Positions 11,429 through 14,616 of a DNA stretch of 64,000 nt are shown here, piece by piece; within the stretch, counting starts at the first letter, position 1; every line of letters starts with the position of its first letter. The stretch is from the IMG/VR virus record IMGVR_UViG_3300037067_027616, positions 64,001-128,000 of that record. The stretch is one strand, 5' to 3'. The stretch comes from a virus (Duplodnaviria > Caudoviricetes). Made by a program: the position numbers and the translations under genes. Under the pieces are notes generated by a model. It worked only from the letters and a program-made list of their open reading frames with translations, did not search any database and was not told where the DNA came from.

Positions 11429-11561
11429 AAACAACGTTTGCGACACAAGTGAACGTGCCTATGGCCTGTGTTGACACGACTCGCACCATATAATACCACG
11501 ACTGTCACGATAACCAATTACCTTCATACACCCAGGGCATGTCACTTTGTCGTTGTTGTGC
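11429..11561 (-). repeat. attC-like site
   Basis: aaacaac gttt gcgaca c aagtga.. / ..tcactt tgtcgt t gttgtgc. Confidence 0.8.
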
Positions 11562-11674
11562 GATGCGGAAGGAGTGCCTACTTTATGTTCGTGTTGGCGA
11601 CCCATGAACCAGCCGCATAGCCAGAAAAAACCTGCACCCATCAGCACTGATACAGCAGTAAGTAAAAGTCCCAT
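11459..11674 (-). CDS. cassette ORF: TM helix plus zinc ribbon
   Basis: GGAGG RBS; CPGC...CESC encoded by the hairpin loop. Confidence 0.65.
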   Translation of the reverse strand: MGLLLTAVSVLMGAGFFWLCGWFMGRQHEHKVGTPSASHNNDKVTCPGCMKVIGYRDSRGIIWCESCQHRP

Positions 11675-11715
11675 GTCGCCAACCTCCCGATTAAGAAAAG
11701 CATGACTGAAATTTC

Positions 11716-11856
11716 ACACAACGTCCTCAGGCACCCGCCCGAAGTTGCCGCCCACAGAATGGACAAAAATTATATCCATTTTCGAGATAATAGCCGAGTG
11801 AAGCACGCTCTTCACAGCACGCACATGGCGGCAATTTTGGGCTGCCTGTGTTGTCG
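11716..11856 (-). repeat. attC-like site
   Basis: acacaac gtcct caggca ccc gcccgaagttgccgcc / ggcggcaattttgggc tgcctg t gttgtcg. Confidence 0.85.
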
Positions 11857-12293
11857 GCTGTGGCCTGCGCCTGGGCCGGTTCCACGATTGCCGCGAGACG
11901 CAACAGATACCTATGCAACTCAACGGGCGTGCGATTCGGCAGAGACTTCTTGAGTGCGTCCAACTCCCGCGAAAAGTATCCGACATCGACACCCCATTGG
12001 CGAAGTTGCACTATTCGTGCGTTGACCTTCGCTATGACACGATCTTTTTTATGCAACCCAACACCGCATAGTAACTCGTAAATGTCTTCGAATAGTGCGA
12101 TTTCGTCCATGGCGCTGTTGTGTGCCGTGCCTAACTCCTTAGCTTTGAGCGCTGCCCACTCTGCCCTCTGTTGCCATGTACCTATTTTGTCGGGGCATAA
12201 GGCGTAAGATATTTCTTCAATTTTTTCGATAAGCCACTTACAGTTTATGCCAAGCTGATCGGCACGTTTTGTTTCCATTTCAAGTTTTGTCAT
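11727..12293 (-). CDS. fused two-cassette ORF ending in a zinc ribbon
   Basis: AGGAG RBS before MTKLEM; reads in frame through the site at 11981-12123; C-terminal CACC...CPFC. Confidence 0.7.
   Translation of the reverse strand: MTKLEMETKRADQLGINCKWLIEKIEEISYALCPDKIGTWQQRAEWAALKAKELGTAHNSAMDEIALFEDIYELLCGVGLHKKDRVIAKVNARIVQLRQWGVDVGYFSRELDALKKSLPNRTPVELHRYLLRLAAIVEPAQAQATADNTGSPKLPPCACCEERASLGYYLENGYNFCPFCGRQLRAGA
11981..12123 (-). repeat. attC-like site with mutated core (GTT to GAT)
   Basis: cgacatc..ccattggcgaagttgcactattc / gaatagtgcgatttcgtccatgg..gttgtgt. Confidence 0.75.
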
Positions 12294-12323
12294 AGCCGCG
12301 CTCCTATCATTAAAGGCATGGCA

Positions 12324-12458
12324 CCACAACATTTTCTAAATGGTTGATAGTTGCCGCATAGCCTCGATAAACAATGAAACTGGACCAGGGATATTATATC
12401 GTGGAAAAGTATCAACTTCTGCAAGACGAGCGGCAATTTCAGCCTTTAGCTGTTGTAG
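12324..12458 (-). repeat. attC-like site
   Basis: ccacaac attt tctaaa t ggttgatagttgccgc / gcggcaatttcagcc tttagc t gttgtag. Confidence 0.85.
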
Positions 12459-12596
12459 GCTGTTTGAGGAGGCTTCCATAGCTTCCTCAAATTTGATATA
12501 TTCTCCGCACTCACCTTTGTCACACATCTGGATAAAATCTGAATATCCAACAGGGCTACGAACCAATTTGTACCTTGTTAAATTTTCTACTGACAT
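12336..12596 (-). CDS. cassette ORF, hypothetical
   Basis: GAGGAGG RBS before MSVENL. Confidence 0.65.
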   Translation of the reverse strand: MSVENLTRYKLVRSPVGYSDFIQMCDKGECGEYIKFEEAMEASSNSLQQLKAEIAARLAEVDTFPRYNIPGPVSLFIEAMRQLSTI

Positions 12597-12615
12597 AAAA
12601 GCCTCCTCAAATGGA

Positions 12616-12766
12616 CGACAACGTGCGCCGTTATGTGCAATCCGCAACTTTGGGCGGATTGAGGCGCTGGTACAACCAATCAACAAACTTGGATGATTCG
12701 CTATCAGCAACTTCCTTAACATATTCTCGCACCACTTCAAGCGCCGTCACATAGCGGCTGTTGTCG
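12616..12766 (-). repeat. attC-like site
   Basis: cgacaac gtgc gccgttatgtg / cacatagcggc t gttgtcg. Confidence 0.8.
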
Positions 12767-12879
12767 GATCGTTGAGCGAGTTCCTTTACTGTTTTCCATG
12801 CCTCGCTTACGACTGGAGATATTGGATACGATATATCTAAAAAATTCTCTACTATGGATACAGGATCTTGGCTTGGCAT
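12631..12879 (-). CDS. cassette ORF, hypothetical
   Basis: GGAGG RBS; stop in the distal hairpin arm. Confidence 0.65.
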   Translation of the reverse strand: MPSQDPVSIVENFLDISYPISPVVSEAWKTVKELAQRSDNSRYVTALEVVREYVKEVADSESSKFVDWLYQRLNPPKVADCT

Positions 12880-12913
12880 GGAAAACCTCCAATAAATTTA
12901 AGAGCATAATGTT

Positions 12914-12984
12914 CGACAACGTCTCGGCGCACCGCCCGATGCGGTACGCTACTCCTGGCCCGTTTCGGGCTGCGCCTGTTGTGC
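12914..12984 (-). repeat. attC-like site
   Basis: cgacaac gtctc ggcgca cc gcccgatgcgg / ccgtttcgggc tgcgcc t gttgtgc. Confidence 0.85.
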
Positions 12985-13197
12985 GTTGTTCTCACGCCTA
13001 CCACCGCATTCTGCAATTTGTGACTCCAGATAGTTGATAACGGACTGTCCTATGTGGTTCGCAATAGCAGTGGCGCGGAACCTTCTGCACCCAACGGCTA
13101 TTTCGTCGTCATTCACGCACAGTGGGTCGCAGGCCACATACACCGGAGTACGAGCGCCGCTGCGAACTTTGACAGAGAAACAAAGCTGATTTTTCAT
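12949..13197 (-). CDS. cassette ORF, hypothetical
   Basis: AGGGGG RBS before MKNQL. Confidence 0.6.
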   Translation of the reverse strand: MKNQLCFSVKVRSGARTPVYVACDPLCVNDDEIAVGCRRFRATAIANHIGQSVINYLESQIAECGGRRENNAQQAQPETGQE

Positions 13198-13230
13198 AAC
13201 AAATTGCCCCCTAAAACGTATGAGAATTTC

Positions 13231-13293
13231 GCACAACGTTCCGTAAATGTATGTTCGTTTGGCTTTGCAAATGACATACTTTACGTGTTAGAC
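13231..13293 (-). repeat. attC-like site
   Basis: gcacaac gttc cgtaaa t gtatgt.. / ..acatac tttacg t gttagac; canonical GTCTAAC R''. Confidence 0.88.
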
Positions 13294-13511
13294 GAATTTT
13301 TTCCAGCTTCCTTATCTTCTTTCAACTGGCGAAAATCTTTTGGAATACGATTGATACCAATAATTAAACTAATGGGAGCAAACAAAAAATTCAAAACAAT
13401 AACCCAAATATCCTTAATGAGATAATTACCTGTAATAACATGTTGAACACGCACACAAAAAACTGCCCATAAACAACACATCAAAAAATAAAGAATAAGA
13501 AATGTTATCAT
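13281..13511 (-). CDS. cassette ORF, small two-TM membrane protein (AT-rich)
   Basis: GAGGAG RBS; two hydrophobic segments. Confidence 0.7.
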   Translation of the reverse strand: MITFLILYFLMCCLWAVFCVRVQHVITGNYLIKDIWVIVLNFLFAPISLIIGINRIPKDFRQLKEDKEAGKNSSNT

Positions 13512-13558
13512 GTTTTCTCCTCGCCAGTTTAACTATAAATTCAAGTTGGCAAAATTTT

Positions 13559-13699
13559 GTCTAACGTCACGGCCTATGCCTGCTGTACCGGCCTACACAT
13601 GCGACACTTGATGCAGATTTCCCAACCGATCACGTGCTTATTTTCGATTGGAGTCCACTGGTGATCGCAGGCTGGTATGGCAGATTGGGTCTGTTGTAC
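13559..13699 (-). repeat. attC-like site
   Basis: gtctaac gtcac ggccta..ctgctgtaccggcct / aggctggtatggcag..tgggtc t gttgtac. Confidence 0.8.
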
Positions 13700-13951
13700 G
13701 CCTGTACAAGACAACCGAACAGACATGACGCAATAGCCTGCCGGAATGCCAAACTGGCCGCCATCCACCTTGTACACCACTTCGACCGCCACTTCGCGGC
13801 CAGAGTATTCGCAAATTGACGGTGACCACTCCCGCAAACGCAGAGTGTCCCCGACAGCGTAATGGCGGTCGTCCTTCCGATACTCAAACGTCTTGACTCC
13901 ATCCACCATGTGCTGAAACACCGACGGCCAAGTCTTCAATTCGTGCAACAT
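13574..13951 (-). CDS. cassette ORF: DUF3850/ASCH-like domain plus zinc ribbon
   Basis: HELKTWP..F....G.KTFEYRKDDR.YAVGD.L.LREW; C-terminal CDH...CIKC. Confidence 0.8.
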   Translation of the reverse strand: MLHELKTWPSVFQHMVDGVKTFEYRKDDRHYAVGDTLRLREWSPSICEYSGREVAVEVVYKVDGGQFGIPAGYCVMSVRLSCTGVQQTQSAIPACDHQWTPIENKHVIGWEICIKCRMCRPVQQA

Positions 13952-13973
13952 AACTGCTCCTCCCGTGTATGGC

Positions 13974-14044
13974 GTACAACGTTCACTGCATGGCGAAGTG
14001 GTGTTTTAACCATTTGCAAAGCGAACGCCATGCAGTTGTTGGGC
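13974..14044 (-). repeat. attC-like site
   Basis: gtacaac gttc actgcatggcg / cgccatgcagt t gttgggc. Confidence 0.88.
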
Positions 14045-14156
14045 GATGTAATTTTTTGCCATATTGATAGGCAATAACTTCAACCGCCTCGTTAAGTCCG
14101 ATTGGAATACCTTGTCGCACTAGGTCGCTCAACTTTTCCAATCTATCATCAACCAT
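13983..14156 (-). CDS. cassette ORF, 57 aa (not in the ORF track)
   Basis: GGAGGA RBS; MVDDRLEKLSDLVRQGIPIG...HHFAMQ*. Confidence 0.6.
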   Translation of the reverse strand: MVDDRLEKLSDLVRQGIPIGLNEAVEVIAYQYGKKLHRPTTAWRSLCKWLKHHFAMQ

Positions 14157-14178
14157 AATTCCTCCAAAAAATTATTTC

Positions 14179-14316
14179 GCCCAACGTATGCTAAACGGCT
14201 GACAGTTGCCGCAACTTAGCACAAAAAGAGTTGGTTACATCACTATCGCACTTCCACGAACCTTTAGTTTGATACTCATTAACGACTGCGGCAATTTCAG
14301 CCTTTAGCTGTTGTAG
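14179..14316 (-). repeat. attC-like site
   Basis: gcccaac gtat gctaaa c ggctgacagttgccgca / tgcggcaatttcagcc tttagc t gttgtag. Confidence 0.88.
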
Positions 14317-14439
14317 GCCCGTTGTTTGCGACTCCGCCTCTTCCAGAGTTTTTATGGACAAGTCCACAGCCTCCGAAAGCATAATACGACCATGAGGATA
14401 GTTGCTCTTGAGAACCGCAATCGCTTCTTTATTGTCCAT
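14191..14439 (-). CDS. cassette ORF, hypothetical
   Basis: AGGAGG RBS; N-terminus similar to the ORF at 14503-14745. Confidence 0.65.
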   Translation of the reverse strand: MDNKEAIAVLKSNYPHGRIMLSEAVDLSIKTLEEAESQTTGLQQLKAEIAAVVNEYQTKGSWKCDSDVTNSFCAKLRQLSAV

Positions 14440-14473
14440 AAAAACCTCCTATGAATGGTTCGCAAACTATGGC

Positions 14474-14616
14474 CTACAACGTGTGGCAAAGGGTTGATGC
14501 AATTAAACGCTATAGGCCCCGCACCTATGACCACAACGTTTACCTCCGGCATAAGGACAGCTTTCAGTTTTACGACAGATGCTGCGTTTAATTGTTTCAC
14601 CCTTTGTAGGTTGGTG
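14474..14616 (-). repeat. attC-like site
   Basis: ctacaac gtgt ggcaaagggttgatgcaattaaacgc / gcgtttaattgtttcaccctttgt..gttggtg. Confidence 0.82.

Follow-up and report, generated by a model that had tools for sequence, protein, structure and literature searches.

The window analysed here, a 64,000-nt stretch of a jumbo phage record (Duplodnaviria; Caudoviricetes; IMGVR_UViG_3300037067_027616, positions 64,001 to 128,000 of that record), carries on its minus strand between 9.1 and 14.8 kb a head-to-tail array of about 13 small genes, each ending in an imperfect hairpin bounded by ACAAC and ACGTTGT or one-base variants of these cores. We mapped 12 hairpin sites by constrained folding and frame analysis and a thirteenth by eye. 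All nine stop positions that the first-pass annotation placed in or beside a far hairpin arm are real ends of minus-strand ORFs, and the four Cys/His motifs that it listed are present in the tails encoded by sites A, D, I and J.

Eight of the sites are long (133–151 nt, with a loop of ~72 nt). Site A (14474..14616, 143 nt) encodes the tail of ORF 14503-14745, which contains four Cys (C-x5-C-x7-C-x3-C) and stops 25 nt before the G of the far core, while site B (14179..14316, 138 nt) encodes a tail of the QQLKAEIAA...RQLSAV type at the end of ORF 14191-14439 that is predicted to form a helical hairpin. Site D (13559..13699, 141 nt, with weak pairing) supplies the tail of the DUF3850 ORF 13574-13951 (CDH...CIKC), site G (12616..12766, 151 nt) the non-Cys tail of ORF 12631-12879, and site H (12324..12458, 135 nt), which has the same arm type as B and a partly decayed right arm, the tail of ORF 12336-12605. 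ORF 11727-12293 spans two sites. In the first, I' (11981..12123), the far core reads GAT instead of GTT and the frame runs on into the next unit, giving fused cassettes, whereas the second, I (11716..11856, 141 nt), encodes the terminal NTGSPKLPP-CxxC...CPxCG-RQLRAGA, the best supported of the probable zinc modules. Site J (11429..11561, 133 nt) forms the tail of ORF 11459-11674, in which one TM helix is followed by CPGC-x14-CESC.

The remaining five sites are short. Site C (13974..14044, ~70 nt) is read through by ORF 13983-14156, whose stop abuts the far core, while site E (13231..13293, 63 nt) pairs weakly and ORF 13281-13511 stops one codon after its near core. ORF 12949-13236 and ORF 10419-10700 stop in the loops of sites F (12914..12984, ~70 nt) and K (10382..10462, 81 nt), respectively. 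At site L (10056..10115), the site read by eye, the near core is mutated to AAA and ORF 10070-10351 stops at the TAG built into the right arm; no constrained fold has the AAA core, and a fold on another AAC gave a dG of only -0.8.

In the long sites the cassette ORF frame is open across the whole site, with seven frames stopping 5–26 nt before the G of the far GTT core and the eighth, at I', running on because its core is mutated. The other two frames are closed inside every long site except I, where a second frame is also open. This amounts to about 307 stop-free codons, for which the chance expectation is (61/64)^307 = ~4e-7. The ORFs are small and mostly without database relatives, which might suggest coincidental frames and Cys motifs, however this count, together with recurrence in a second array and in 20 other loci, refutes an ORF-calling artefact. 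The second array, in the same genome (G000 140.4-144.1 kb), includes a paralogue of the ORF 12336 N-domain that carries a Cys-rich tail instead. In contrast, loci around relatives of the flanking gene 14836-15396 in five other jumbo phages show no array.

The first-pass annotation proposed that the loops encode zinc ribbons. This holds for only about half of the long sites, since the tails of B, G, H and I' contain 0–2 Cys. A similar split is seen in a wider set, selected for ORFs that end near a far core, in which 21 of 49 distinct long-site tails from this genome and 20 related loci have at least 4 Cys and 21 have 0–1 Cys. An energy-based site finder separated true sites poorly from background (-11 against -8 to -11 kcal/mol) and was not used for ORF-independent counts. 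A loose two-arm pattern gave 116 hits in viral sequences, of which most were chance and about 20 were real. In 18 sites sharing one arm pair, found by DNA pattern in 15 other viral contigs and this window, the loops are 69, 72, 75 or 78 nt long, none has an in-frame stop, and the stop lies 8–14 nt after the inner arm.

Several comparisons support the annotation's proposal that one DNA segment serves both as a recombination structure and as a C-terminal domain. The DUF3850 relatives P0012, P0013 and P0015 end just after the domain, while P0010 and P0011 carry other tails that begin at the QQ encoded by the near core. The N-domains of ORFs 11727, 12336 and 11459 recur elsewhere with different tails, and the similarity ends at the AAC. 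Conversely, a profile of the site I tail finds 71 cluster representatives, nearly all of 70–125 aa, in which the tail sits at the extreme C-terminus and the sampled N-termini are mostly unrelated. Of 73 tails examined (these hits plus P0001 and P0003), 49 carry the full double-knuckle motif, and all four Cys are invariant in the 46 aligned motif-selected tails. Against a homologous tail at the related locus L156, whose N-terminal part is unrelated, the site I loop shows 10 synonymous and 7 non-synonymous differences (pS 0.68, pN 0.12, dN/dS 0.07), with three Cys codons changed synonymously, whereas the 51 arm bases compared (13.7 synonymous sites) do not differ at all. The dN/dS value rests on this one pair, and conservation is well supported for site I, weakly for J and D, and not for A. 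A homologue search with the site J tail returned only itself, although a weak relative at locus L073 was later found by local tblastn.

The assignment of the Cys tails as zinc-binding rests on sequence alone. A match to Pfam Zn_Ribbon_1 (PF13240) has an E-value of 0.008, but its 16.3 bits fall below the family cut-off of 25. Weak PDB profile matches (E-values of 0.002–0.05) all point to Cys4 zinc modules with CxxC-x16-CPxC spacing, namely the Fpg/MutM C-terminal zinc finger, Rpo12, uS14 type Z and bL33. The AlphaFold2 model of the site I tail (pLDDT 75, 78–87 in the core) places a helix between the knuckles, and neither Foldseek against PDB nor the VIA wide search gave a usable match for the 46-residue tail model; a zinc-ribbon fold was not confirmed. 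The model of the site B protein (pLDDT 77.5) shows the tail as a helix-turn-helix at 75–88.

These data also bear on the possibility that reading through the hairpin is selected only for expression, with the ribosome melting an mRNA hairpin that would otherwise block downstream cassettes, the stop placed near the next start and the encoded tails as functionless passengers. Frame and built-in stop are conserved even where loop sequences are unrelated, and attC hairpins in mRNA may hinder translation of downstream cassettes. However, the low loop dN/dS with synonymous Cys changes, the invariant Cys, the confident helical-hairpin and knuckle models and the division of the tails into Cys4 and helical classes make this explanation improbable. 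A terminator reading was rejected, since neither terminator-like nor promoter-like sites are enriched (6 promoter-like sites against 8.9 expected). A search of Rfam gave no hit.

At the DNA level, the arms covary to keep pairing. The mean duplex energy of cognate arms is -11.9 kcal/mol against -8.05 kcal/mol for non-cognate pairs, a difference reached in 0 of 10,000 permutations, and seven divergent sites pair best with their own partner arm. In addition, the two ends of each unit are complementary, with the 14 nt after each GTT matching the reverse complement of the 14 nt before the next site's AAC at 8.4/14 on average, against 5.1 for non-cognate pairs (0 of 20,000 permutations). Evidence on the position of the crossover is divided: the related loci L146/L147 and the DUF3850 tail similarity favor the far core, so that a gene and its own hairpin would travel together, while the bulge position and several cases of one N-domain with different tails favor the near core.

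No recombinase gene is present in the record. No hit to PF00589 or TIGR02249 was found in the whole 466.7-kb record, and no tyrosine recombinase in 9 of 10 related viral records. Two scans of 185,579 prokaryotic species genomes for the arm pattern gave only chance hits, so a host integron of this type is not evident. We therefore considered whether the arms instead serve as short portable homologies for the phage's own homologous recombination, as proposed for the PeSL cassettes of T4-type phages (Arbiol et al. 2010), which would swap loops and genes while leaving the translated tails real. Consistent with this, arms of 27–31 nt are identical between different cassettes, the L146/L147 breakpoint is gradual rather than sharp, and hairpin cores are shared where both flanks are unrelated. 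This is seen at L156 and at locus L050, where two unrelated ORFs share a 98% identical ~155-nt block running from the near core to 12 nt past the far core, a pattern that one crossover point per site, as in integrons, does not explain. Homologous recombination needs no palindrome, however, whereas here the arms covary and the unit ends are complementary, the mark of a circular or hairpin intermediate. AAC/GTT cores or one-base variants are also present at the 13 sites. We consider this alternative unlikely, but cannot rule it out.

Taken together, and with reasonable though not full confidence, we interpret the locus as an integrase-less array of integron-like gene cassettes whose hairpin sites lie inside the 3' ends of the cassette genes and, as judged from sequence without expression data, are translated. 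In this view the arms (about 25 nt each, from the ACAAC core and up to the ACGTTGT core) are held constant as DNA because they must pair, and as a by-product encode a fixed linker peptide, a fixed C-terminal peptide and a built-in stop codon. The ~72-nt loop is free as DNA but selected as protein, and encodes a 24–26-residue mini-domain that is either two Cys knuckles, probably binding zinc, or the turn of a predicted helical hairpin. Because the arms are shared between cassettes, a hairpin with its loop can end up on unrelated genes and give them a new C-terminal module. That the hairpins are substrates of a hairpin-recognizing recombinase, from the host or unknown, is inferred from structure, covariation and end complementarity. 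A more speculative possibility is that phages run their own cassette system, distinct from bacterial integrons, in which an unidentified enzyme other than a tyrosine recombinase acts at the conserved arms to move whole genes and also to swap small C-terminal domains between proteins. This would be a natural prokaryotic analogue of exon shuffling, with the recombination signal written into the linker and C-terminal peptides.

Integron recombination sites are treated as non-coding signals at gene ends, whereas here signal and protein module occupy the same DNA, giving a route by which a mobile site can add a probable zinc-binding or helical tail, together with a stop codon, to any captured gene. 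This also explains a widespread family of small phage proteins with identical C-terminal peptides, and annotation pipelines that trim ORFs at attC sites, or mask such sites, would mis-call these genes.

Clusters of attC sites lacking an integrase (CALINs) have been described in phage genomes (Qi et al. 2023, PMC9892861), and the array resembles them in its head-to-tail single-gene units, imperfect hairpins of 63–151 nt with AAC...GTT cores, complementary unit ends, lack of a nearby integrase and cargo typical of phage accessory genes (Lar and methyltransferases in the related loci L146-L148 and L001). It differs in that 30–45 codons of the gene lie inside the site, the loop is a selected protein module of fixed length class, and this arm family was found only in viral contigs and metagenomes, not in 185,579 prokaryotic species genomes. 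The ~13 nt between the outer core and the inner GCGGCAA stem is mostly paired, whereas classical attC sites appear to have an unpaired spacer of 5–6 nt. Partial overlap of stop codon and attC is probably familiar from classical cassettes, so the novelty lies in the 30–45 translated codons, and we found no paper on translated sites. Synthetic attC sites embedded in protein-coding genes (Nivina et al. 2020, as summarised in PMC8618304) show that a structure-defined recombination hairpin can coexist with a reading frame, but those were engineered, while here the arrangement is natural and systematic and the site brings its own peptide, stop codon and mini-domain. The PeSL cassettes likewise appear to have repeated stem-loops flanking small accessory ORFs in plastic regions of large phage genomes, but appear to be intergenic promoter-plus-stem-loop units, whereas the present sites lie in coding sequence, have AAC/GTT cores and show no promoter enrichment. 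Finally, the homogeneous attC families of sedentary chromosomal integrons, such as the Vibrio cholerae repeats, also appear to share one arm family among many unrelated cassettes, but those repeats are likely long, near-complete palindromes with a small loop and are not reported as coding, while here 25-nt arms flank an unpaired 72-nt coding loop.

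The 466,729-bp IMG/VR record that contains the window at bases 64,001-128,000 is classed as provirus and 98% complete, and we interpret it as a jumbo phage. It has an HK97-type capsid hit, and genes around the array match PHROG families. Other genes encode an FtsK-like protein, a MoxR-type AAA ATPase next to a DUF2201 metallopeptidase/VWA protein (window 52006-54654), and a PARP-like protein with WGR and PARP regulatory domains together with a WGR-domain ATP-dependent DNA ligase (window 4962-6353 and 47881-48957), both unusual cargo for a phage. No match to a tyrosine recombinase or an integron integrase exists anywhere in the record.

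Between window positions 9.1 and 14.8 kb all genes are small and lie on the minus strand. Each intergenic space holds ACGTTGT or a one-base variant, and 10 of the 57 minus-strand copies in the genome fall in this 10-kb bin. Constrained folding pairs each such core with an upstream ACAAC, giving 12 folded imperfect hairpins of two size classes (63-81 nt and 133-151 nt), while a 13th site (L) was identified by eye. The long class has arms of about 25 nt and an unpaired loop of about 72 nt. At 10752-11392 two overlapping ORFs, a 101-aa Cys-rich ORF and a MazG-like pyrophosphatase (phrog_3301, E 3e-27), have no hairpin between them and may represent a two-gene cassette or decayed sites. A second array of these hairpin cassettes lies outside the window on the minus strand of the same genome (record positions 140431-144081), with at least 8 far-core motifs and read-through tails, two of them Cys-rich and one helical. 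Two further hairpin cassettes, at 5241-5902 of the contig of a small phage (L150), sit between genes that we took by size and position for large terminase and portal, thus the arrays are not confined to early regions or to jumbo phages.

Three results indicate that the hairpin is selected as nucleic acid. Firstly, among 18 distinct sites that share the inner stem, the variable parts of the arms covary (mean cognate duplex energy of -11.9 against -8.05 kcal/mol, reached by none of 10,000 permutations), and seven divergent sites pair best with their own partner. Secondly, the two ends of each unit are complementary: the 14 nt after each GTT match the reverse complement of the 14 nt before the next site's AAC (8.4/14 against 5.1/14; 0 of 20,000 permutations), whereas the two flanks of the same site are at background. 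This is the footprint of integron cassettes, whose two ends form one site in the free circle. In cassette H (window 12452-12475 and 12599-12622) the 5' end, including its Shine-Dalgarno GAGGAGG, is complementary to CCTCCTC inside the gene's own 3' coding part just before the near core, which could be a long-range mRNA pairing that masks the ribosome site. Thirdly, the arms stay identical while neighbouring synonymous sites are nearly saturated, as described below for site I. The sites match no Rfam family and are not terminator-like.

In all 8 long sites the cassette frame is open across the loop, and seven of these frames stop 5-26 nt before the far-core G. The eighth (I', 11981-12123) is an internal hairpin with intact arms whose far core is mutated from GTT to GAT, so that a single ORF (11727-12293) spans two cassettes and reads on into the next unit. 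The other two frames are closed in every long site except I, where a second frame is also open, and the chance of about 307 stop-free codons is ~4e-7. The stop is part of the right arm, being TAG in the B/H/L arm type and TGA in type I. Of the short sites, C and L are also read through, F and K stop in the loop, and E stops just after the near core.

The arms and the open frames recur in other DNA. An exact 31-nt arm occurs in three other viral contigs, and a looser two-arm pattern finds about 20 true sites among 116 hits. In 18 sites from 15 contigs plus this window the loop is 69, 72, 75 or 78 nt, always in frame and never with a stop, and the stop lies 8-14 nt after the inner arm. Their tails read QQLKAEIAA followed by 24-26 variable residues and then RQLSAV, which AlphaFold2 models as helix-turn-helix (pLDDT 75-88 in the tail).

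The tail encoded by site I, the long hairpin at the end of ORF 11727-12293, is of the four-Cys type. A first search showed this tail on proteins with unrelated N-termini, and the N-domain with other tails. A profile search of 1.84 billion cluster representatives found 71 hits, nearly all 70-125 aa, with the tail at the extreme C-terminus. Of 73 tails examined (the hits together with two further proteins, P0001 and P0003), 49 have CxxC-x11-19-CxxC followed by G/R/Q/L-like residues, and all four Cys are invariant in the 46 aligned motif-selected tails. The same arms also carry non-Cys loops (in L150, in the related phage L001 and in the protein P0080). The decisive comparison is a single pair, window site I and the locus L156, which have unrelated N-terminal parts. 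The paired arm blocks are identical (27 nt on each side; 51 nt scored in the codon analysis), whereas the 75-nt loop has 10 synonymous and 7 non-synonymous differences (pS 0.68, pN 0.12, dN/dS 0.07), with three Cys codons changed synonymously. If the arms evolved like the loop, about 9 synonymous differences would be expected in them, and none is seen.

The first-pass annotation described the loops as encoding zinc ribbons. For the site I tail, Pfam Zn_Ribbon_1 scores below its cut-off, and a PDB profile search gives only weak matches, although all are to Cys4 zinc modules with the same spacing (Fpg/MutM finger, Rpo12, uS14 and bL33). The AlphaFold2 model (pLDDT 75) has a helix between the knuckles and finds no structural neighbour, thus we describe it as a four-Cys, probably zinc-binding mini-domain. 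Support for the other three Cys tails is weaker. The site J tail has the classic CPxC-x14-CxxC motif and one distant relative in the locus L073 with the same pattern. The tail of site D, in the DUF3850 ORF, shares GW..C..CR with the DUF3850 homologue P0010, but its other ligands differ, while site A has only a paralogous N-domain in the locus L002 with another Cys-rich tail.

The tails also behave as modules. The DUF3850 homologues P0012, P0013 and P0015 stop right after the domain, whereas P0010 and P0011 have other tails starting at the near core. The N-domain of ORF 12336, the gene that ends in site H, recurs in the second array (record positions 142.2-142.5 kb) with a Cys/His-rich tail, and the similarity ends at SSNSLQQ. 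In the locus L050 two unrelated ORFs share a 98% identical block running from the near core to 12 nt past the far core. Window site H and the locus L082 share 67 of 68 nt upstream of and through the left arm and have a conserved right arm, yet their loops are unrelated.

Only 1 of 10 related viral records has a tyrosine recombinase. This record, the 47.6-kb related phage L001, encodes a 268-aa Xer/IntI-like protein (4143-4949) directly upstream of its hairpin cassettes, which scores below the family cut-offs (125 bits against the integron-integrase model, cut-off 265) and is about 50 residues shorter than that 315-position model. The arm pattern is absent from the 185,579 species genomes searched. 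We found no report of naturally translated sites. Integrase-less attC clusters in phages have been published (PMC9892861), and synthetic attC sites inside genes have been engineered (PMC8618304).
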